From Acidobacteriaceae bacterium (lineage in GTDB: Bacteria > Acidobacteriota > Terriglobia > Terriglobales > Acidobacteriaceae): DNA of 64,000 nucleotides. The stretch spans positions 8,545-72,544 of the forward strand of contig DATJUD010000172.1 of assembly GCA_035502695.1 (NCBI GenBank). Reading direction: 5' to 3'. Below are positions 12,783 through 56,908 of this stretch, piece by piece. The notes below the pieces were generated by a model, which did no database searches, was not told the origin of the DNA, and saw nothing but the letters and a program-made list of their open reading frames with translations. Numbering within the stretch: position 1 is the stretch's first letter; every line of letters begins with the position of its first letter. Made by a program: the position numbers and the translations under genes.

Positions 12783-15116
12783 TCAAAACGAGGCATTCAG
12801 TCGAAGATTGAAGCTGCGGCCGGGGCCAATGGCATTGCCGGAAAACAATCCGCCAAAGTCGATCACATCGAGCTGGTTGCTCAGGTTAGTCCCGTCGGCT
12901 TGCAGATTCATCGTGACGTGCTTGTTTCGGTAGAGTTCAGCCGCGGCGGTCGCATCGAACAGCAGCGCCGGTTCTACACGCCCACGCGGAAAATTCAGCC
13001 GCCCCACTACCGCCGCACCGTATTGTGCAATCGCATCCGCTTCCGTACCGGTGTAGTCGAAAGGCAAACCGGAGTTGTAGTCTGCTCCAGCTGCCAGCCA
13101 AAAGCGCGGTGTAATCTGATCGCGAAAACGAGTTCTCACCGTGTTGCGCTGATCCTGCGAATCGGGAAAGTGTCCTGAAAGCTGGCTGGCTGCGCTGCTC
13201 GCGTCGGGGCCAAGAAAAAGACCTCCGGTGACGGGTAGCCAAACATTCCCGACCATATAGGAGTAGCTGACGAATCCGCTGAAGCTGCCGAGACGAATCA
13301 GTTCAAATTTGCCTTCTGCGCCGTAAATGATCGCGTGGTTGAACGCAATGGGATAACTGATACCAGTATTCAGCAATTGATCGTCGTCTGCATAATTACT
13401 CGTATCCCGGCGATACATATTCGCATCGACCCGCATGCACGCGAGGAACGCCTTCGACACGCCGATCTCGTAATAATTTCCGCGAGAGGGTTGCACCGGA
13501 AGCCGCAGGAATTGTTCGCTGAGGGCATCCACCTCGGGCGAACTGGAAAGCAGAATATTCTCAAACGATGGCGTCTGAAAGATGCGATCGTAGGATGCGT
13601 GCAGCATCAGGTTGGCCGAGGGAAAATAGCGTCCGACGGAAAGCCGTGGACTGAACGCAAACTCGTTTAGAAGGAGTTGATAGTGGTCGTAGCGAAGACC
13701 AGCGCTGACCGTCCACTTGCCGAGGCGCACCAGATCCTCAACGAAGGCGGCCTGCTCCAGATCAGGACGGCTCTCGATAAAGCTGAAGGTTGGTGGCGTG
13801 TCCGGATCAAATTGCGATGGATCCGTGATGATGTCGTGAAAATTCTCGTTGAGGAAAATGTTATCGGACTCAACGCCCGCTTTGATCTCCTGATTGCGGT
13901 GGTGCAGAGAATACGTTCCCTTAAAGTAGCCCTCACGGAAATGGTTATGCTGAAACACAATGATCGGCGTGGAGGCTGCATTGGATGTGAGGTCGTTGGA
14001 GTTGTCGCGCACCATTCCAGCCAGCGTGGCAATGCTGTTGGCAGAGAAGGTGTGTTGGTCGTGAACTGTGCCCATGGTTTCAAAGTTGTCGCCGTACTGG
14101 CGTTGACCCGCCTGTTGCTGCAACAGTTCATTTGGAATTTGAAAACGCGAAAGCTCATGCCGAAGGCCGAGACTCAGTCGATCTGCGGCGGAAAAATCAC
14201 GCTCGTAGCGGCCGGAGAAGTCGCCGGTCGTGCCGGTATTGGTGTAGTTTTCCGGGACCACCGGGTTCAGATAGTGATTGGTCATACTGCCCGCGCCTGT
14301 GGCGCCAAACGTATTCTTGCCGCGAAGGTACTGCAGCTGCGTGAAGGCTGAGCCCGTGTCGTAACTGCCGCCCGATAGCACTACCTGGCCGTGCAGTCCT
14401 GGATTGGTGTCGCGAATCGTGTTCAACTCCACGACGCCGCCCATCTTGCGACCGAATTCTGCAGGAAACCCGGCGGTGTAGATGCTGATGGACGAGAGAT
14501 CATTCGCTTCGATTTCCGGACCGAAACTGGGAGAACGATTATCCGTGAGCGGAATGCCATTGATCACGAATTGAGTTTGATATTCAGATCCGCGCGGATG
14601 CAGGACAGCATTTCCCTCATACAGCCATCCCGGCTGCGAGTTTACTAAATCCTGCACTGATCGACCGGGCAGCGATGCCACGCGATCCTGGATCTGCTGC
14701 GAACCGATCTCCATCACAGAGGACGGCATGTAGGGATCGATGAGAGTGTTCGGTGTACTCACTTTGACCACGGTCGTAATGGGGGTGAGATCGAGATGCA
14801 GGCTGCGTTTCACAGGGATTGCGGAGTGTATGTCTGCACTGATGGATGCTGGCGCAAAGTCCGGTCGATCTACCTGGACCAAATAAATGCCGAAGGGAAG
14901 TTCTTTGAAGTCGATAACGCCGGAAGCATTTGTGGTGAGAGTGTTGTGATAATGTGTTCCCTCACTGCTCACCGTGACAGCCAAATGTGCGGCTGGCCCC
15001 GCGGGATCGGTGACGACGACGCGAAGTTCGCCTGTGTTCACCTGAGCCAGCAAACTCCACGCTGCACCTATAGCCAGCAGACTTAGGAGTTTGATTGCAC
15101 GCAAAGACACAGTCAT
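12783..15116 (-). CDS. TonB-dependent outer-membrane receptor with N-terminal carboxypeptidase-regulatory-like domain
   Basis: Signal peptide, then GELRVVVTDPAG.., a plug region, a long beta-barrel, and a C-terminal aromatic residue (..NLRLNASF). Confidence 0.85.
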   Translation of the reverse strand: MTVSLRAIKLLSLLAIGAAWSLLAQVNTGELRVVVTDPAGPAAHLAVTVSSEGTHYHNTLTTNASGVIDFKELPFGIYLVQVDRPDFAPASISADIHSAIPVKRSLHLDLTPITTVVKVSTPNTLIDPYMPSSVMEIGSQQIQDRVASLPGRSVQDLVNSQPGWLYEGNAVLHPRGSEYQTQFVINGIPLTDNRSPSFGPEIEANDLSSISIYTAGFPAEFGRKMGGVVELNTIRDTNPGLHGQVVLSGGSYDTGSAFTQLQYLRGKNTFGATGAGSMTNHYLNPVVPENYTNTGTTGDFSGRYERDFSAADRLSLGLRHELSRFQIPNELLQQQAGQRQYGDNFETMGTVHDQHTFSANSIATLAGMVRDNSNDLTSNAASTPIIVFQHNHFREGYFKGTYSLHHRNQEIKAGVESDNIFLNENFHDIITDPSQFDPDTPPTFSFIESRPDLEQAAFVEDLVRLGKWTVSAGLRYDHYQLLLNEFAFSPRLSVGRYFPSANLMLHASYDRIFQTPSFENILLSSSPEVDALSEQFLRLPVQPSRGNYYEIGVSKAFLACMRVDANMYRRDTSNYADDDQLLNTGISYPIAFNHAIIYGAEGKFELIRLGSFSGFVSYSYMVGNVWLPVTGGLFLGPDASSAASQLSGHFPDSQDQRNTVRTRFRDQITPRFWLAAGADYNSGLPFDYTGTEADAIAQYGAAVVGRLNFPRGRVEPALLFDATAAAELYRNKHVTMNLQADGTNLSNQLDVIDFGGLFSGNAIGPGRSFNLRLNASF

Positions 15117-15350
15117 AGGAGTGAGGGCGAGGTTAGCAGGTTGCTTCAGTGTAGCTCCAGCAGATGAGGCGCGGTCGCCCGTGTGGGCATGTTTGCGCTC
15201 CGCAACTTTCTATGGCTGTAACATGCAGTCAAGTCGTGCTGGCCGCAGGGTTGGGAGAGCTTTACTATGGCGGCTATTCGGATGGACGCGCCAGTGGTCG
15301 GTGTAGGTCGCACCGACAACGATTGCAGATTCTATTCCGAGGCACCAGGT

Positions 15351-16841
15351 TCAATTTGCGCCGACGTTCGCGCCGACCTTGCCTGTTTTCGCCGCAGAGG
15401 AAGAAGCATGATCGTTGGCCCGAAACATGGCCCACGGAGTGCCCTGCATATCCCGCAGTACGGGCTTCTCCCATGCGAATTCAGGATGCTTCGCCAGAAA
15501 CGGTTTGACCAGAAATGGCTCACCGCAAGGTCGATTGGTTCGCGCCATAAACGACATTTTGCTGATCATCGAACTGTCGGCCGCTTTGGCGTTGGACGCG
15601 CCACCCGGTTCAAACGGCGGGTCGCCCCAGATTGCAACGCCGCGCGGGGAGACGTCTTCATGTCCGCACAATGTACGTTCATCCGGTCCCCATTTCCCAG
15701 TATAGGCGTCAAGGTGATCGGCTAAAAACTTTTGCGCCAGTGGAACGTCAATCTGGCCCTTGTATTGCGCCATCAATTCGTCCCAACGCTTGTGCCGCGC
15801 GTTGGCCGTGTTGCTCGCATCGTTGGGATCAAACGTGGTCTCTTCCCGGGTGAGCGTGGGATCGCTGGGAAAATTGGAACCCACAAAGTAGCCGTTCTTG
15901 GTGCGCCATAGGCGATGAATTTTAAGCCCCAGTTCCAGACGAGCGATTTCTCCCGTATGGTTATCCGCGACGAGCCAATCATTGGCGTAACCGCCGTTAT
16001 TTCCCGTCACCATCAGGCGTTCAAAGTCGTCGATATTCGCCGAGTACTGCATGGCCTTGCGCGCGCGAACAAATTCAGGAATGCCATTGGGATCGAACCC
16101 ATGGAATCCGCTGATTGTTGTTTCTGTAATCGCGATTCCTGCGGAGTTGATTCCGAAATCATCGCCGCTGTCGATCTTGCCTGGCCAGCCATCCATCAAA
16201 ATGCGATAGCCATGTTGCGGAACAATGTCATACATGATGCGCCAGCGCTCGCCTTCAAGAAAAGGGCTCCATAGGCTGTGTGCGATGACCGGTTTGTGGT
16301 CGCGTGTCCAATCGCCGGTGGCGACAAAGGCGCTGCAGCGGCCGCGGGGGCTCAGACTTGCGAGGGCGGTAGGATGTTCTTTGCTTTCAAGATAGGGGAT
16401 GTAATATTCGTCGGTCTCATTAAAGCCGTTCACCGCGACGACGTCCCAGATGTCCATGTCGGTGATGCCGTGGGCCTTCAGGCCATCCGCGATTCCCTGT
16501 AATTCTTCGCGATACTCGGCTTCAATATGCGGCCAGTAGACATCCTTCGCGGTCGTCCGATAAAACTCCCAGTTGCGATGTGTGTTGTGCGTGTCTTCCA
16601 GTTGAATGGCATGAAAGCCATCCTCGATCTCAGGGGCCAGCAAATATCCATTTTCAAAACCAATCTGGTGCGGTGTGCCCTGCAGATGGACATAGACCCA
16701 ATTGGCCCGCTCAAAGCGATAGGCTCCGTGCAAATCTGGAGGCGTCGACTGCGATTGTGCATTAGCCATTGATGAGTTGGCGACGACGAGAATGAAACTG
16801 AGCACAACTGGAAAGAGAAAACTGCGGAGATGAAAGCGCAT
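15351..16841 (-). CDS. Secreted Ntn-hydrolase, phospholipase-B-like / C45-peptidase-like
   Basis: Signal peptide (..SSMANAQ). A candidate autoprocessing nucleophile sits at ..SPRGRCSAFVATG... Size and pattern fit phospholipase-B-like/C45 families. The assignment is from memory. Confidence 0.55.
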   Translation of the reverse strand: MRFHLRSFLFPVVLSFILVVANSSMANAQSQSTPPDLHGAYRFERANWVYVHLQGTPHQIGFENGYLLAPEIEDGFHAIQLEDTHNTHRNWEFYRTTAKDVYWPHIEAEYREELQGIADGLKAHGITDMDIWDVVAVNGFNETDEYYIPYLESKEHPTALASLSPRGRCSAFVATGDWTRDHKPVIAHSLWSPFLEGERWRIMYDIVPQHGYRILMDGWPGKIDSGDDFGINSAGIAITETTISGFHGFDPNGIPEFVRARKAMQYSANIDDFERLMVTGNNGGYANDWLVADNHTGEIARLELGLKIHRLWRTKNGYFVGSNFPSDPTLTREETTFDPNDASNTANARHKRWDELMAQYKGQIDVPLAQKFLADHLDAYTGKWGPDERTLCGHEDVSPRGVAIWGDPPFEPGGASNAKAADSSMISKMSFMARTNRPCGEPFLVKPFLAKHPEFAWEKPVLRDMQGTPWAMFRANDHASSSAAKTGKVGANVGAN

Positions 16842-16922
16842 TCGTTGGCCCCTCCGACTCAGGCTACCGTTGAAACCTGCCCCAAGGCAATGGCTATTCG
16901 GAGTTTGGGGGTATGAAATGTA

Positions 16923-16998
16923 TGGAGCACCGGGCGGGAATCGAACCCGCGAATACTGGTTTTGCAGACCAGCGCGTTAGCCACTTCACCACCGGTGC
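16923..16998 (-). tRNA. tRNA-Cys (GCA)
   Basis: The minus strand reads GCACCGG TG..CTGGT CTGCAAA ACCAG..GCGGG TTCGATT CCCGC CCGGTGC T CCA. The 7-bp acceptor, T-arm and anticodon loop with GCA all fold by eye. CCA is encoded. Length 76 nt. Confidence 0.9.
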
Positions 16999-17060
16999 TC
17001 TTGGTTGATCCCCCGGATTCCGCCACACATCGGCATGACGGAAGTCCGGCAGACTTGCTT

Positions 17061-17717
17061 CTAGTTCGGCTGAGGTGCGGTACGCAAATACGGCTTGATC
17101 GTTTTGTAGCCAGGAAACAGTTTATCCGCTTCTTCGTTGGAAACAGCGCCGCTCAGGATAATGTCATCACCCTGTTTCCAATTGGCAGGCGTGGAGACCC
17201 TTTGTCTGCTTGTAAGCTGGATGGAGTCGAGAACGCGCAGAATTTCGTCGAAATTGCGTCCGGTCGACATTGGATAGGCCAACGTTAGCTTGATACGTTT
17301 GTCTGGACCGATGACAAAGACCGTGCGGACGGGTGCATTATTGGCTGGTGTGCGACCTTCTGAGGTTTCGCCTGCATCGGCGGGAAGCATGTCGTAGAGC
17401 TTGGACACCTTTAGATCGGTATCTCCAATAATGGGATAGTTCACCGCGTAGCCGCCTACCTCCTGGATGTCAGCGGCCCATTTGCCGTGGCTGCTGACAG
17501 GATCCACGCTCAGACCGATGACTTTAACATCGCGACGGGCGAACTGGCCTTCGAGAGCTGCGACCGTCGCCAGCTCCGTAGTGCAGACGGGCGTGAAATC
17601 TTTCGGGTGGGAGAAAAGAACGGCCCAATTGTCGCCGATCCATTCGTGAAAGTGGATCGGTCCCTGGGTCGTTTCAGCGGTAAAATCAGGCGCGATATCG
17701 TTGATGCGGAGTGACAT
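17061..17717 (-). CDS. 1-Cys peroxiredoxin (Prx6-like, AhpC/TSA family)
   Basis: ..FSHPKDFTPVCTTEL.. peroxidatic Cys motif. The ATG at 17717 is preceded by AAGGAGA with a 6-nt spacer. Confidence 0.9.
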   Translation of the reverse strand: MSLRINDIAPDFTAETTQGPIHFHEWIGDNWAVLFSHPKDFTPVCTTELATVAALEGQFARRDVKVIGLSVDPVSSHGKWAADIQEVGGYAVNYPIIGDTDLKVSKLYDMLPADAGETSEGRTPANNAPVRTVFVIGPDKRIKLTLAYPMSTGRNFDEILRVLDSIQLTSRQRVSTPANWKQGDDIILSGAVSNEEADKLFPGYKTIKPYLRTAPQPN

Positions 17718-17770
17718 GTTCAATCTCCTTCGAAGACGAATTCTCGATGCGTTGTCATTCAGATGACGCC

Positions 17771-17809
17771 AAAAAGCAGAAACCCACCAGCCTCGGCGGC
17801 GGGTGGGTT
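17771..17809 (-). terminator. Intrinsic terminator / attenuator hairpin upstream of the peroxiredoxin gene
   Basis: The minus strand reads AACCCACC CGCCGCCGAGGCT GGTGGGTT TCTGCTTTTT: an 8-bp GC-rich stem (extendable by GCC/GGC) followed by a U-rich tract. Confidence 0.65.
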
Positions 17810-17845
17810 CCCATGATTCTGCGAAATTGTCTTAGTTCGATTCGC

Positions 17846-17914
17846 TCATGGACACGCCCGCATACAGTTGCAGCAACAGCACAGACAGCGGCGGGTTGGA
17901 GCGATTTGCATCAT
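17846..17914 (-). CDS. Cys-rich 22-codon upstream ORF (candidate leader peptide or micro-protein): MMQIAPTRRCLCCCCNCMRACP
   Basis: Read directly from the minus strand: ATG ATG CAA ATC GCT CCA ACC CGC CGC TGT CTG TGC TGT TGC TGC AAC TGT ATG CGG GCG TGT CCA TGA. It lies between a promoter-like element and the terminator. No clear SD is present; the upstream sequence is AT-rich. Confidence 0.4.
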   Translation of the reverse strand: MMQIAPTRRCLCCCCNCMRACP

Positions 17915-17955
17915 TGTTAAATTTTTAAAAGCAGTGAAGCTGCCTCTTGAGGACG

Positions 17956-17985
17956 AGCATAGAGCCTGCAACAAATGGCTGTCAA
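17956..17985 (-). promoter_or_regulatory. Sigma70-like promoter candidate (TTGACA-N18-TATGCT)
   Basis: The minus strand reads TTGACA gccatttgttgcaggctc TATGCT. The -35 hexamer is a perfect match and the -10 hexamer matches 4 of 6. Confidence 0.45.
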
Positions 17986-18058
17986 ATGACCAGGACACGG
18001 TTTTAAGCGGCACGAAAATTCTTCACAAGCAATTCTACGTCGCGACGCACGGGATATG

Positions 18059-18625
18059 TCAGCGATCGGCCGCGCGATTTTTCCAGTGACGCTGGTAGTT
18101 GTCCAGCGTGGAAAAGGTCTGGCTCTGCATTCGATCGATATAGATTTTCCCCTGCAAATGGTCGATCTCATGCTGCAGAATGCGTGCATACCACCCCTTC
18201 GCTTCGATCACCCGAGGCTTGCCATGGTGATCGAGACAGGTGACGCGAACCGCGTGTGACCGTGGAACCTCCGCCATAAATCCAGGAAGACTCAGGCAGC
18301 CCTCAAAGAAAGAAACCTGCGAGTCGGAGAGCAACTCAATCTGCGGATTGATCAACACGTGGAAGTCGACGGGCACACGTTCTCTCTCCTTCAATTCTGC
18401 TTCCGTCGTCGCCTTGTGATATTCCGCCCGATCCTCAATCACCGCCAAGTTTAGGGACTGACCAATCTGCGGCGCTGCCAACCCAACTCCCGGCGCATCG
18501 CGCAGGGTTTCTCGCATATGTTCAATCAGGCTTTTGATCTCCGGACCGCGAATCTCTTTGGGCGTAAGTACACGCGCCGTTTGCCGCAATACAGGATGTC
18601 CAACAGCAACAATCTTCAGCAGCAT
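18059..18625 (-). CDS. def: Peptide deformylase
   Basis: All three signature motifs are present: GVGLAAPQIG, EGCLS and HEIDH. Confidence 0.95.
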   Translation of the reverse strand: MLLKIVAVGHPVLRQTARVLTPKEIRGPEIKSLIEHMRETLRDAPGVGLAAPQIGQSLNLAVIEDRAEYHKATTEAELKERERVPVDFHVLINPQIELLSDSQVSFFEGCLSLPGFMAEVPRSHAVRVTCLDHHGKPRVIEAKGWYARILQHEIDHLQGKIYIDRMQSQTFSTLDNYQRHWKNRAADR

Positions 18626-18730
18626 TTTCCCCGCAATTCTTGCGATCTCCAGCCCAGCGCAGCAGCCTGAATCGCGCTCTTCCTATGCTACAATTTAGCA
18701 ACTTCTTTGGTGCTGGAGTTCTGCCGAGTG

Positions 18731-18805
18731 ATGATGATTCAACCTTCTCGAATGTATATGGCCATGCCTGCCCCAGGCGGTCGCAAGCCAGCTTCAGAAG
18801 TCTGA
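18731..18805 (+). CDS. Met-codon-rich 24-codon leader ORF: MMIQPSRMYMAMPAPGGRKPASEV
   Basis: ATG ATG ATT CAA CCT TCT CGA ATG TAT ATG GCC ATG CCT GCC CCA GGC GGT CGC AAG CCA GCT TCA GAA GTC TGA. GGAG lies at 18715-18718 and an in-frame GTG at 18728. It sits directly upstream of the transsulfuration genes. Confidence 0.4.
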   Translation: MMIQPSRMYMAMPAPGGRKPASEV

Positions 18806-18867
18806 GTTATCCCGCTCAATCTTCATTCTGGCAGCCGCCTGGGGAGTTCCCGCCACGGCACGTTTTT
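18771..18867 (+). promoter_or_regulatory. Structured leader RNA: 10-bp long-range helix, alternative weak hairpin, and T5 run
   Basis: CCCCAGGCGG (18771-18780) is perfectly complementary to CCGCCTGGGG (18835-18844). GCCAG (18787-91) pairs with CTGGC (18828-32). An alternative hairpin at 18834-18859 is followed by ACGTTTTT. Confidence 0.4.
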
Positions 18868-18905
18868 CCCAGGAACCATTGCATAGCCCGAATGGAGATT
18901 GCATT

Positions 18906-20108
18906 TTGAGCTCACCAGATTTGGACATTTCTACTGTCGCGATTCATGGCGGACGATCGCTGGATTCCCACGCCAGCTCGATCTTGTTTCCTCTGTATCA
19001 AACCAGTACGTTTGTGCATGATGCGGTCGGAGTCGACAAAGGATTTAGTTACTCGCGAGTGTCGAACCCAACCGTAGACGCGCTTGAAAAAGCACTTGGT
19101 GCGCTGGAAGGAACGCCGCCGGTAGTTTGCTTTCGGACCGGCATGGCCGCAGTCACCACGCTGTTTCTTTCGGTTCTGAAGTCCGGCGATCACGTCGTGT
19201 TGACCGATGTTGTGTACGGCGGCACCATGCGCTTGTTTCGCGAGGTGCTGGATCATCTCGGTATCACCGCGTCGTTCGTGGATACATCCGATCCAGGCAA
19301 TGTTGAAGCGGCGATCACGCCCGCGACTCGCATCGTTTTCCTGGAGACGCCAGGCAATCCTACGCTGAAGCTAAGTGACATTGCGGCGGTTGCCGAGATT
19401 ACCAAGCGGCATTCGATTTTGCTGGCAGTCGACAACACATTCCTGACGCCGATCTTGCAAAACGTCCTGCAACTAGGTGCAGATATTTCTCTGTTATCGA
19501 CCACGAAATATATCGATGGCCATAACGCAACCGTCGGTGGCTCACTGGCCACCCAGGATGAGAAGCTGCTGGAGCGATTTCGTTTGATTCGCAAGACGAT
19601 CGGCACTACGCAAGCCCCATTCGAAGCATGGTTGGCGTTGCAGGGAATGAAGACGTTGCCTGCGCGGTTGAAACTCCATTGCGAAAACGCCCAGACGATC
19701 GCTGAATGGCTGGAGAGCAACCCCGCAGTATCCCGAGTGTATTACCCCGGACTGAAATCATGTCCGCAAAAATCCTTGGCAGAAAAGCAGCAGGGCGCGG
19801 CCGGCGGCATGATCTCTTTCGAGTTGAAAGCCGGATACGACGCCACAATTCGCATGCTGAATCAAGTGCAGCTTTGTTCGCGCGCCGAAAGTTTGGGAGG
19901 ATTGGAAACCCTGATCACGCATCCGTCTTCAACAACCCATGCCGACCTGGATCCGGAATTGCGCCGTAATCTTGGCATCACCGATGGTTTGGTTCGACTC
20001 TCCGTCGGACTGGAAGCTCCACAAGATATCATCCGCGATCTGGAGCAGGCGATGGTAGCTGCTGGATGTAGCGTGCAGGAAAAAGAGGTTGGCCATGAAA
20101 ATCGCTAG
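18906..20108 (+). CDS. Cys/Met-metabolism PLP-dependent enzyme (cystathionine gamma-synthase/gamma-lyase type)
   Basis: ..FPLYQTSTF.., ..YSRVSNPT.., and the PLP-lysine region ..LLSTTKYIDGHNATVGG... The start is uncertain: TTG 18906 follows GGAGA (18894-98), while the longest ORF starts at 18879. Confidence 0.85.
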   Translation: MSSPDLDISTVAIHGGRSLDSHASSILFPLYQTSTFVHDAVGVDKGFSYSRVSNPTVDALEKALGALEGTPPVVCFRTGMAAVTTLFLSVLKSGDHVVLTDVVYGGTMRLFREVLDHLGITASFVDTSDPGNVEAAITPATRIVFLETPGNPTLKLSDIAAVAEITKRHSILLAVDNTFLTPILQNVLQLGADISLLSTTKYIDGHNATVGGSLATQDEKLLERFRLIRKTIGTTQAPFEAWLALQGMKTLPARLKLHCENAQTIAEWLESNPAVSRVYYPGLKSCPQKSLAEKQQGAAGGMISFELKAGYDATIRMLNQVQLCSRAESLGGLETLITHPSSTTHADLDPELRRNLGITDGLVRLSVGLEAPQDIIRDLEQAMVAAGCSVQEKEVGHENR

Positions 20109-21237
20109 CCGCCTGGTAAGTTTTGATCCCGCGCCGGGAGATCGGTTTCGCCCCATTTCCACGCCGATCTATCAGACGGCCACTTTCGAGCAGGAATATT
20201 CCGATCAGTTCGGCGAGTACGATTATTCGCGAAGCGGTAATCCCACTCGTGCGGTAGTCGAAAAGCAAATTGCGTCGCTGGAAAACGGAACTCACGGATA
20301 TTGTTTCTCCAGCGGTATGGCCGCGATCACCACCGCGACGAAATTGTTGCAGAACGGTGATGAGATTCTTGCCGACAACGATTTGTATGGCGGTACCTGC
20401 CGTCTGTTTACCAAGGTGCTGAAGCGCACTGGCATCTCCGCGAAATACGCGGACGCGTGCGATCTTGAAAATTTCGAGCGACAGATCACTCCGAAAACAA
20501 AAATGATCTACGTTGAGTCGCCCACCAATCCTTTGCTTCGTGTGGTCGATCTGCGCAAGCTGGGTGCCACGGCGCATGCTCACGGTGCGCTGTTCTGCGT
20601 GGACAACAGCAGCATGTCGCCCTACCTGCAGAACCCGCTTGACCTGGGAGCGGATGTGGTTCTGCATTCGGGAACAAAGTTTCTCGGTGGTCATCACGAC
20701 GTCACCGCCGGATCTATCGTCGTGAAAGACAAGGTGCTGGCCGAGCAAATTTATTTTGTGCAGAACGCGGAAGGCAATGCGCTGGCGCCATTTGATTGTT
20801 ATCTTTTGCTGCGCGGCATGAAGACGTTGAAGCTGCGGCTCGACTGCCAGCAAAAAAATGCGCAAGCCATTGCGGAATTTCTCAGTCAACATAAAGCAAT
20901 CCAGCGGGTCTGCTACCCAGGGCTGAAAAGCGATGCCGGGTATGAACTGCAGCATTCTCAGGCGCGTGGCGCGGGCGCTGTCCTGAGCTTCACTACAGGT
21001 TCCGTTGCGCTCTCGAAAGCCATTGCGGAAAATGCCAAGCTGTTCCGCATCACCGTCAGCTTCGGCAGCGTCAACTCTTCCATCAGCGTGCCGGGAAACA
21101 TGTCGCACGCCAGCGTTCCGGTGGAGCTGATGTCGCAACGTGACCTGCCGAAAGACCTGGTACGCATTTCCGTTGGGATTGAGGACGAGGAAGACTTGCT
21201 CGCCGATCTGGATCGTGCCATCCAATCCTATCGGTGA
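20095..21237 (+). CDS. Cys/Met-metabolism PLP-dependent enzyme (cystathionine beta-lyase type)
   Basis: ..ISTPIYQTATFEQE.., ..YSRSGNPT.., ..VLHSGTKFLGGHHDVTAG... The ATG at 20095 follows AAGAGG. It overlaps the preceding paralogue by 14 nt, a metI-metC-like arrangement. Confidence 0.85.
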   Translation: MKIASRLVSFDPAPGDRFRPISTPIYQTATFEQEYSDQFGEYDYSRSGNPTRAVVEKQIASLENGTHGYCFSSGMAAITTATKLLQNGDEILADNDLYGGTCRLFTKVLKRTGISAKYADACDLENFERQITPKTKMIYVESPTNPLLRVVDLRKLGATAHAHGALFCVDNSSMSPYLQNPLDLGADVVLHSGTKFLGGHHDVTAGSIVVKDKVLAEQIYFVQNAEGNALAPFDCYLLLRGMKTLKLRLDCQQKNAQAIAEFLSQHKAIQRVCYPGLKSDAGYELQHSQARGAGAVLSFTTGSVALSKAIAENAKLFRITVSFGSVNSSISVPGNMSHASVPVELMSQRDLPKDLVRISVGIEDEEDLLADLDRAIQSYR

Positions 21238-55762: not shown

Positions 55763-55969
55763 TCATGTTTTCAGAGTGTAACCGGATGCTTGTGTGCCGT
55801 CAACCTGGGCAGTTCGCGCCGCTTGCGAATTGACATCCTGGCCCGCATCCGACATTCTAGAGATGTCATGGCTATCCGGCTTTGTACCCTGACGTGTCGG
55901 TTCCAGGTTCGCTGTTGTTGTTGTCGCAGCGTTGCCGGCCCAGGGTGTGAGCACTGTCGATAGTTCCAC
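55763..55969 (-). CDS. Hypothetical 68-aa hydrophilic protein (Thr/Ala/Gln-rich)
   Basis: A GTG start is preceded by AAGAGGAG. Translation: MELSTVLTPWAGNAATTTTANLEPTRQGT... No family recognised, and codon usage is not clearly genome-like. Confidence 0.3.
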   Translation of the reverse strand: MELSTVLTPWAGNAATTTTANLEPTRQGTKPDSHDISRMSDAGQDVNSQAARTAQVDGTQASGYTLKT

Positions 55970-56089
55970 GATCTCCTCTTCAGTCTCCTAGAAATCTAGA
56001 ACCCTGCGGCCGCATCTTTTGCGAGCGCGGGTCCTTTCCTGCCTGTCTCGCATCCCATTTCACGGCAAAACTTTTAGAACGAGCTCACG

Positions 56090-56908
56090 ATGGAACTGGC
56101 GATTGGATTTGTCATCGCGTTTGCAATTGCAGTCACCGGCGTCGGCGCGGGCACCATTACCGCTCCCTTGCTGATCCTGTTTTTGCATGTTCCCATTGAG
56201 CTCAGTGTCGGCACAGCCCTGGCGTATTCCGCCATCGTAAAAATGATCGTTGTGCCCGTCCAGATCTGGCGCAAGCAGGTGGTCTATCGCGTCGTCGGCT
56301 GGATGTTGTTAGGTGGTCTACCCGGTGTGATTCTCGGCGTGGTGCTGTTTCGTCGCGTGGTGCGGCACGGCGAGCAGAACATTTTATATGTCGCGCTGGG
56401 CAGCATCATTGTCGCGTCGTCGGCTTGGCACCTGTACCGAAACCTTCGTCCACCGTCGGCAACCCGAGCAAGAAAAACTCATCCCGCATGGATTGCGGCA
56501 CTTATGCTGCCGATTGGTACAGAGGTTGGCTTTTCATCTTCAGGGGCCGGGGCGCTGGGCACGCTCGCATTGCTCAGCATGACCACGCTGGATGCATCGC
56601 AGGTAGTCGGCACCGATCTTGTCTTCGGACTTTGCCTGTCTCTGGTCGGCGGCGGCATGCACGTGTTCAGCGGAAGTTACGACAGCGGGCTTCTGCTCAA
56701 GCTAGTACTCGGCGGATTTTTCGGGGCTCTTGTCGGCAGCGGCGTTGCACCGCGATTGCCGAATCGCCAGCTGCGGGTTGCACTGGCCTCGTTGTTGTTA
56801 GTGGTGGGAACACTGTTCTGCGTGCGGCCGTTGCACTTCCATCCCATCGCCAGCCTGCAGGCTGTGGTTCACGCCAGCGTATCGGCATCCAGTTCGCTCG
56901 ATCGCTAA
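56090..56908 (+). CDS. TauE/SafE-family sulfite/anion exporter
   Basis: 8 predicted TM helices and a duplicated ..G.G.G..(T/L)P.L.. motif (..VTGVGAGTITAPLLIL..). Confidence 0.8.
   Translation: MELAIGFVIAFAIAVTGVGAGTITAPLLILFLHVPIELSVGTALAYSAIVKMIVVPVQIWRKQVVYRVVGWMLLGGLPGVILGVVLFRRVVRHGEQNILYVALGSIIVASSAWHLYRNLRPPSATRARKTHPAWIAALMLPIGTEVGFSSSGAGALGTLALLSMTTLDASQVVGTDLVFGLCLSLVGGGMHVFSGSYDSGLLLKLVLGGFFGALVGSGVAPRLPNRQLRVALASLLLVVGTLFCVRPLHFHPIASLQAVVHASVSASSSLDR

Follow-up and report, generated by a model that had tools for sequence, protein, structure and literature searches.

A candidate cysteine-codon attenuator upstream of a 1-Cys peroxiredoxin and tRNA-Cys in Acidobacteriaceae

In the trp and his model of attenuation, the position of a ribosome on a short leader open reading frame (ORF) decides which RNA fold forms. 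The subject of this analysis is a leader that appears to follow the same logic for cysteine, found in a 64,000-nucleotide stretch of DNA from an Acidobacteriaceae bacterium (contig DATJUD010000172.1, positions 8,545 to 72,544; hereafter the window), in which a Cys-rich upstream ORF (uORF) and an intrinsic terminator precede a peroxiredoxin gene (prx) and a tRNA-Cys gene. Leaders that carry Cys codons have been described in other phyla. In mycobacteria, polycysteine leaderless small ORFs (sORFs), known as the 'Cys ribulon', mark a multi-locus cysteine regulon that includes a sulfite reductase locus (Canestrari et al. 2020, bioRxiv 10.1101/834739). In the case that has been studied, the ribosome-binding site is buried in a duplex until a stalled ribosome opens it, an output described as translational and terminator-free in the account of Barth et al. 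2021 that PMC13096801 gives. In Rhodobacterales, the uORFC-8-2 motif upstream of cysS is a predicted attenuator with tandem Cys codons, a terminator stem and a U run (Brewer et al. 2021, PMC8632094). Cys leader peptides have also been predicted for the cys/cbs operons of Actinobacteria, where a search for terminator hairpins found none and Rho dependence has been proposed (Seliverstov et al. 2005, PMC1262725). As for the Acidobacteria, the attenuators predicted there have almost no assigned functions (PMC2965389).

The window leader is most likely an attenuator of the classical type, in which a ribosome controls transcription according to how much charged Cys-tRNA(Cys) is available. Its parts lie on the minus strand, to which all coordinates refer unless stated otherwise, downstream of def (18625-18059). 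A sigma-70-type promoter at 17985-17956, TTGACA (17985-17980)-N18-TATGCT (17961-17956), matches the consensus at 10 of 12 positions and is one of only two promoter-like sites found in 15500-19500 by a scan for a sigma-70-like consensus. It is followed by a 5' untranslated leader of about 35-41 nt (17955-17915), A/U-rich directly before the start codon, and then by the leader peptide ORF, ATGATG...TGA (17914-17846), whose 22 codons plus TGA encode MMQIAPTRRCLCCCCNCMRACP. Codons 10-17 of this ORF (TGT CTG TGC TGT TGC TGC AAC TGT; 17887-17864) hold the regulatory Cys codons and are the proposed stall site. Region 1 (CCCGCCGCTGT, 17895-17885) is the putative partner of the start of region 2 when the ribosome is absent, and region 2 (17861-17841), the antiterminator 5' strand, consists of the uORF tail GCGGGCGTGTCCATGA and 5 further nt. 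A spacer hairpin, GCGAA..TTCGC (17845-17821), is enclosed by the antiterminator. The intrinsic terminator (regions 3 and 4; 17812-17771) has the stem GGGAACCCACC/GGTGGGTTTCT (17812-17778) and the U tract TTTCTGCTTTTT (17782-17771), which ends 53 nt before the prx ATG. The Shine-Dalgarno (SD) sequence of prx, AAGGAG, lies at 17730-17725 and its coding sequence at 17717-17061 (ATG at 17717). The prx stop is separated by 62 nt from the start of tRNA-Cys(GCA) (16998-16923; ARAGORN; Rfam tRNA 63.9 bits), and this spacer holds a GC-rich hairpin without a U tract (17054-17008; -30.1 kcal/mol, z = -4.05).

A sequence-only reading of the window had already placed this promoter, the uORF with its 7 Cys codons, and the GC-rich hairpin with its U tract ending at 17771, and all of them are present as it described, with the start of the stem now set at 17812. 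It had also seen no promoter between the terminator and prx, and no U-tract terminator between prx and the tRNA-Cys gene on the same strand. Both observations hold: the sigma-70-like consensus scan finds no promoter-like site between the terminator and prx, and the hairpin of the prx-tRNA spacer is the one without a U tract. Rfam, searched at a permissive E <= 1 over 15000-21000, matched only the tRNA, with no T-box or known amino-acid leader family, and at the gathering threshold six related loci gave only tRNA-Sec.

Of the 22 codons of the window uORF, 7 are Cys codons, 6 of them within 8 consecutive codons. Across the six frames of the window, a stretch with 6 or more Cys codons in 8 is found only once, and none of 200 Markov shuffles contains one. 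The CCCACC..GGTGGG hairpin is similarly rare, with one in the window against 0.04 expected, and a chance origin of the Cys run and the hairpin is excluded. Most other Cys-rich stretches in the window lie inside the spans of long ORFs; the one at 18611 is an off-frame reading of def.

Relatives were collected by scanning with the Prx protein and keeping one genome per species, which gave 80 prx loci. At 20 of the 80, prx is preceded at a distance of 106-184 nt by an equivalent ORF, 20-27 codons long, that includes 3-7 Cys codons in a run. The carriers belong to the Acidobacteriaceae or Terriglobia (Terracidiphilus, Tunturiibacter, Granulicella, Bryocella and metagenome-assembled genomes), and nothing resembling a Cys-run leader was seen at the Proteobacterial and other prx loci among the 80. 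The complete layout of promoter, Cys-run uORF, terminator, prx and tRNA recurs at about 20 Acidobacteriaceae genome loci. A promoter of the form TTGACA-N17/18-TAtnnT stands at the equivalent position in all 19 relatives for which upstream sequence was available. The gene upstream of the unit varies, being def in the window and a divergent PhzF-like gene in most relatives; since that gene is divergent, the unit needs a promoter of its own.

The start signals of the uORF also vary, relatives having either a leaderless layout or an AAGGA SD. In the sister clade and in two further loci (L004 and L008), only 6-9 nt separate the end of the -10 box from the start of the uORF, making these uORFs leaderless or nearly so. 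For the window, a leaderless promoter right before the ATG (AAAAAT as the candidate) was considered and rejected, there being no acceptable -35 box. Two side observations concern this part of the leader. A weak hairpin (17945-17925; -8.1 kcal/mol), followed by TTTTAAAAATTT, lies in the 5' untranslated region of the window just before the uORF start; it could act as a leaky terminator for def read-through or affect uORF initiation. In six relatives of one sub-clade (L002 from Tunturiibacter psychrotolerans X4BP1, L005, L006, L007, L009 and L015), about 70 nt separate the -10 box from the Cys uORF, and this long leader is conserved (..AGACCGCAATGGGGCAAAC..GCTAGCCTAGCTGGC..). An additional ATG within it shares the frame of the Cys uORF in some genomes (MGQT...) and lies in another frame elsewhere.

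The terminator of the window folds at -27.6 kcal/mol (z = -4.0), and none of 200 shuffles is as stable. Its stem, ACCCACC(C)/(G)GGTGGGT, and the T run after it are found in nearly all leader-bearing relatives. The sequence-only reading had set an alignment of relatives as a test of its proposal, and in relatives the Cys run and the hairpin are both conserved. Pair counts were made on 24 aligned group-A leaders: 91% of the terminator cells are paired, four pairs are changed on both sides, and 0 of 500 shuffles reach the covariation score. RNAalifold, applied to a MAFFT alignment of the 24 leaders, returned only helix fragments because the pairing register shifts among sequences, and it was dropped in favor of per-sequence constrained folds and explicit pair counts.

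Alternative folds of the leader were computed for different ribosome positions. The ribosome-free minimum-energy fold consists of a hairpin enclosing the Cys codons (1:2), the small spacer hairpin and the terminator (3:4). When the ribosome sits on the early Cys codons before region 4 is transcribed (modeled by masking the RNA to 14 nt beyond the second Cys codon), the 5' arm of the terminator pairs with the uORF tail instead (2:3). This antiterminator (17866-17798), in which 17861-17841 pairs with 17816-17797, has an energy of -23.0 kcal/mol in the window (z = -3.15). The uORF ends, at every locus, in codons that resemble the 3' arm of the terminator and complement its 5' arm, and in 20 of 21 loci the 2:3 partners fall within the last 2-17 nt of the uORF. 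Across the 24 sequences, the antiterminator helix is 81% paired, against 39-53% in shifted registers. Most group-A relatives have a hairpin at the position of the spacer hairpin (GAATCGAAG..CTTCGAG). The sequence-only reading had proposed that the leader segment AACCCGCC allows alternative folds by pairing with the 3' arm of the terminator. The alternative folds exist, but the segment fits better as region 1, pairing with the uORF tail, than as a partner of the 3' arm.

A broader view can be obtained from metagenomes, which were searched with a pattern consisting of a run of Cys triplets followed by the ACCCACC..GGTGGG hairpin; regions 1 and 2 were left unconstrained. At least 120 contigs match, and the full leader layout is present in 88 of those listed. 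In these 88 leaders the 2:3 duplex has a mean energy of -10.2 kcal/mol, compared with -5.7 when 24-mers are drawn at random from the same locus, and it reaches p <= 0.05 in 33 of the 88. The 1:2 helix reaches p <= 0.05 in 18% of the 88 loci listed, against 5% expected. The random 24-mer duplex energies replaced an earlier control, in which the stretch from the stalled ribosome to the terminator arm was shuffled; that control was uninformative because the G+C-rich arm pairs with almost any shuffle. The fixed 24-nt span for region 2 clips this region in leaders of the sulfite reductase (sir) and tRNA types, and the duplex p-values are therefore conservative there.

The genes behind these metagenome leaders, identified with NCBIfam, define a regulon. 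The leader precedes a 1-Cys prx in at least about 32 contigs and a peroxiredoxin of a second type in at least two. In at least 27 contigs it is followed by sulfite reductases of the NirA/Sir family, of about 570 and 751 aa, and in at least one contig each by CysD, a JAMM/Mec-like protein, a ThiS-like gene and a MoaD-like gene. The window leader belongs to an Acidobacteriaceae cysteine attenuation regulon whose other members are the leaders of sulfite reductase, cysD, mec, the thiS- and moaD-like genes, a TauE permease and free-standing tRNA-Cys. A regulon made up of cysteine and sulfur assimilation genes and tRNA-Cys fits a Cys-tRNA signal.

The tauE member of the regulon is represented in the window itself, where a second Cys leader lies on the plus strand at 55830-56040. 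It has the promoter TTGACA-N17-CATTCT, a near-leaderless uORF at 55868-55963 (MAIRLCTLTCRFQVRCCCCRSVAGPGCEHCR) whose Cys-rich stretch is at 55913, and a hairpin (about 56000-56033) whose T tract is poor. Downstream of it is a TauE/SafE-family permease gene (56090-56908, plus strand; Pfam PF01925, 1.5e-37). The leader is kept in one relative (L201, TauE 85% identical) as MAIQVRSLMHRLQNRCCCCDSVAGPGYEHCR, with only the CCCC run and the tail retained. In more distant Acidobacteriaceae (L202-L205, around 1-2340; Alloacidobacterium, Acidisarcina and related metagenome-assembled genomes), the tauE orthologue ends a cysN (GTP_EFTU)-cysH (PAPS_reduct)-tauE cluster, which suggests a role for this TauE/TSUP protein in the assimilation of sulfate or sulfite.

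The computation shows directly how the leader is built, that it is conserved, which alternative pairings it can form and which genes belong to the regulon, and on this basis a mechanism can be proposed. Transcription would start at the 17985-17956 promoter, and a ribosome would translate the 22-codon leader. With ample Cys-tRNA, it would reach the TGA and cover region 2, so that the terminator at 17812-17771 could form and transcription would end 53 nt short of prx. When Cys-tRNA is scarce, the ribosome would stall on the early Cys codons (17887-17873), covering region 1 and freeing region 2. Region 2 could then pair with the 5' arm of the terminator to form the antiterminator, and the polymerase would read into prx and most likely onward into tRNA-Cys. 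We infer the translation of the uORF, the stalling, the response of termination and read-through to cysteine, and the co-transcription of tRNA-Cys. The earlier proposal of a Cys-codon, ribosome-mediated attenuator over prx and tRNA-Cys is therefore strengthened on three sides, by the recurrence of the layout, by the complementarity between uORF tail and terminator arm, and by the presence of the same leader at cysteine-assimilation genes and at bare tRNA-Cys genes.

Prx itself has a plausible place in such a response. Its product carries the Pfam domains AhpC-TSA (PF00578, 6.9e-28) and 1-cysPrx_C (PF10417) and matches the NCBIfam peroxiredoxin PRK13189. It has the active-site motif FTPVCTTE with a single Cys in 218 residues and no resolving Cys, and its best relatives in the PDB are 6p0w, 7kuu and human Prx6. 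By these features the predicted protein is a member of the Prx6 subfamily of the 1-Cys type. In Pseudomonas aeruginosa, the Prx6-type 1-Cys peroxiredoxin LsfA is induced more than 45-fold under sulfur starvation and its gene is among the most strongly induced (PMC12581299, PMC4199769). By analogy, this precedent would tie prx to sulfur limitation. A direct comparison of prx with a Pseudomonas LsfA sequence (52% identity) was set aside as evidence, as that sequence was unverified.

Several points weigh against the attenuator and should be kept in mind. The support is computational throughout. Because the window uORF has no SD and, starting 41 nt after the -10 box, is not leaderless, its translation is assumed. 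Stalls at the later Cys codons (15, 17 and 21) would mask region 2 and favor termination. In the window, the 1:2 hairpin (-14 kcal/mol, z = +0.2) is not more stable than shuffled controls. The antiterminator covaries modestly, with one pair at CG:9/UA:7 and 10-20 of 500 shuffles equaling the score; most stem positions are invariant, which limits the covariation. The conservation of the terminator stem in the 88 metagenome leaders is built in, since the search pattern demanded ACCCACC..GGTGGG. Finally, tRNA-Cys may have a promoter within the prx coding region.

A tRNA gene accompanies the leader at many of these loci. In the genome loci of group A, tRNA-Cys follows prx on the same strand in 11 of 11. 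In the sister clade, its place is taken by tRNA-Sec (selC), again downstream of prx on the same strand (L013, L023, L025, L028, L032, L039, L053, L085, L094, L152, L188 and L195-L197). These tRNA-Sec genes are genuine, with Rfam RF01852 scores of 65-70 bits and discriminator G73. Two ideas that this clade raises were rejected: that prx encodes a selenoprotein there, as the peroxidatic codon is Cys in all loci, and that a Sec-like tRNA is charged with Cys, which finds no support in the discriminator G and the Rfam tRNA-Sec scores. Where the leader uORF is missing from an acidobacterial prx locus, so is the tRNA.

The spacers between prx and the tRNA measure 16-137 nt, some in the tRNA-Sec clade being only 16-29 nt; L013 is an exception, with tRNA-Sec 927 nt downstream. 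In relatives the spacer usually contains a strong G+C hairpin without a U tract and has no positionally conserved promoter-like site, the best matches reaching 6-9 of 12 positions. The hairpin of the window spacer (17008-17054) may be a 3' stabilizer of the prx mRNA after tRNA processing, or a processing element. The tRNA-Cys gene is probably the last gene of the unit, and its co-transcription by read-through would be the simplest reading of this arrangement.

In at least 14 metagenome contigs, the Cys leader stands directly before tRNA-Cys with no protein gene between them (L082, L098, L114, L136, L147, L150, L151, L154, L159, L164, L178, L190 and others). These contigs share the promoter cTTGACA-N17-TA(G/A/C)TCT, the AAGGA SD, the Cys uORF and the terminator. 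The gap from terminator to tRNA-Cys is 27-215 nt, in some cases only 27-40 nt, and promoter-like matches within it are weak and unconserved (5-9 of 12 positions). Here the tRNA gene itself appears to be the cargo of the attenuator. A stronger version of the proposal is that in Acidobacteriaceae tRNA-Cys, possibly in its only copy, is transcribed mainly by read-through of a Cys attenuator, either directly or behind prx, and that the sister clade couples the same switch to tRNA-Sec (selC); we consider this version evenly poised between true and false. If it is true, a shortage of charged tRNA-Cys would raise the synthesis of tRNA-Cys, a self-correcting loop operated by ribosome stalling alone, and the status of cysteine-tRNA would be tied to both peroxide defense and selenocysteine decoding.

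Other explanations of the leader must be weighed against the attenuator. The uORF could sense a different trigger, for example an oxidant or a metal that acts on the poly-Cys chain during its synthesis, or its output could be translational or Rho-dependent as in mycobacteria. A peroxidase cargo would suit a direct redox signal, yet the remaining regulon consists of cysteine and sulfur assimilation genes and tRNA-Cys, and the peptide context of the Cys run is unconserved, unlike that of known arrest peptides. On the side of output, the mycobacterial Cys sORFs act on translation in the absence of a terminator, and the second leader of the window has a poor U tract. The prx leader, however, has a canonical G+C stem and U tract that are conserved in relatives, and the SD of prx lies 40 nt past the terminator, outside the conserved pairings. 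We regard a different trigger or output as improbable.

Less probable still is that the uORF encodes a functional Cys-rich micro-protein, either metal- or redox-binding or a resolving-thiol partner of the 1-Cys Prx, with the hairpin merely ending a small gene. The sequence-only reading had kept this option, and it has some appeal: the position of the ORF is conserved, there are always several Cys, the neighboring thiol peroxidase has no resolving Cys, and some mycobacterial sORFs conserve non-Cys residues too (Canestrari et al., bioRxiv 10.1101/834739). The comparison of leader peptides speaks against it. The Cys run, with its variable length of 3-7, is their sole common feature (for example MTMMPNTTTTLCCCCCCSPVWVCG, MKLLSTIRRGMCCCCCCPPRVRV and MFRPYHAGVTCCCMCSLPCG), the residues flanking it differ even between close relatives, and in the second leader of the window the Cys residues outside the run are not conserved relative to L201. 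The conserved 3' nucleotides of the uORF are those that complement the terminator arm. Typical tails are ..GTG TGY GGG TAG and ..CGG GTG CGT GTC TGA, and the GTGGGT-like tail is read in different frames in groups A and B, which suggests that the constraint acts on the RNA and not on the peptide. Similar peptides also precede sulfite reductase, cysD and bare tRNA-Cys, where a partner for Prx would make no sense.

It is likewise very unlikely that the parts are unrelated neighbors, with a short transcript or small RNA (or def read-through) ending at the hairpin and with prx and tRNA-Cys having promoters of their own: the promoter scans cover a sigma-70-like consensus only, acidobacterial promoters are poorly characterized, and the strong hairpin in the prx-tRNA spacer could mark a transcript end, but the 53 nt from the U tract to the prx ATG contain no promoter-like site, the module moves as a whole while the upstream gene changes between def and a divergent PhzF-like gene, and tRNA spacers down to 16-29 nt and terminator-tRNA gaps down to 27 nt leave no room for a promoter.

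The surroundings of the unit add some observations of their own. Two tandem genes for pyridoxal phosphate-dependent enzymes of Cys/Met metabolism (18879-20108 and 20089-21237, plus strand; both PF01053) are divergent from def, so that sulfur amino-acid metabolism genes adjoin the attenuated unit. No Cys-run uORF was seen upstream of this pair (18879-21237). On the other side, a gene for a 496-aa protein with a signal peptide-like N terminus and a phospholipase B domain (PF04916; 15351-16841, minus strand) starts about 80 nt past tRNA-Cys.

The proposed attenuator can now be set beside the systems described above. With the classical amino-acid attenuators (trp, his, leu, thr and pheA in Proteobacteria; trp in Actinobacteria; PMC1262725) it shares a short ORF with tandem codons and an intrinsic terminator, and in both the leader ORF ends in the sequence that serves as the antiterminator 5' strand. 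It differs in sensing cysteine and in its cargo, a peroxidase and a tRNA gene in place of a biosynthetic operon. Among the acidobacterial leaders more widely, many uORFs of relatives are leaderless and the 1:2 helix is weak, both of which set them apart from the classical cases.

The mycobacterial Cys sORFs resemble the acidobacterial leaders in being poly-Cys ORFs at the 5' ends of operons, with at least two consecutive Cys codons and a regulon of cysteine genes. Stalling under limiting Cys-tRNA is thought to operate in both, and many of the acidobacterial copies are leaderless too. The leaderless trait is absent from the prx leader of the window but is shared by group-B relatives, by L004 and L008 and by the second leader of the window. 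Unlike its mycobacterial counterparts, the prx leader has a conserved intrinsic terminator, belongs to another phylum and shows no sequence relationship, and neither a peroxiredoxin nor a tRNA is reported as cargo of the mycobacterial sORFs in the literature compared. The uORFC-8-2 motif and the window leader would both control a gene of the Cys-tRNA supply chain. However, uORFC-8-2 has only two Cys codons (positions 14-15, within the first stem), serves the gene of cysteinyl-tRNA synthetase and is confined to Alphaproteobacteria; the sequence and stems of the window leader are unrelated to it. The Cys leaders of Actinobacteria are, like the window uORF, short ORFs with Cys runs near the stop, upstream of cysteine genes, whereas in the window leader the terminator is the best-conserved part.

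On the side of the cargo, LsfA in Pseudomonas and prx in the window are alike as Prx6-type 1-Cys peroxiredoxins, and their physiology would be linked in the same way: LsfA is switched on together with sulfur and cysteine assimilation genes (PMC12581299, PMC4199769), as prx would be. The control of LsfA is a transcription factor-driven response to sulfate starvation, whereas prx would use a cis-acting switch of RNA and ribosome. If the proposal is true, it would offer a simple mechanism for the long-noted co-induction of 1-Cys peroxiredoxin with sulfur starvation, and charged Cys-tRNA would be the shared signal of thiol shortage. It would also extend leader-peptide attenuation to a new phylum, with a whole cysteine regulon built on one cis-acting design. 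The tRNA-Sec variant raises the question of whether the decoding of cysteine and that of selenocysteine influence each other. Members of the family that can be cultured, among them Tunturiibacter, Granulicella and Terriglobus, make the proposal directly testable.

The sequence-only reading had taken the whole combination to be undescribed, and that view now needs to be narrowed. Within a partial coverage of the literature, no description was found of Cys attenuators in Acidobacteria, of attenuator-controlled tRNA genes or of a prx/tRNA-Cys operon, and the same coverage gave none of a feedback loop in which an attenuator controls the gene of the very tRNA that it senses. Within that coverage the prx/tRNA cargo and the Acidobacteriota lineage appear new, but Cys attenuators as such are known in mycobacteria and predicted for cysS of Rhodobacterales. 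Cys-codon attenuation is already familiar; what is new here is its union with an intrinsic terminator, in Acidobacteriota, over a cargo of peroxiredoxin and tRNA, the latter being tRNA-Cys or, in the sister clade, tRNA-Sec.

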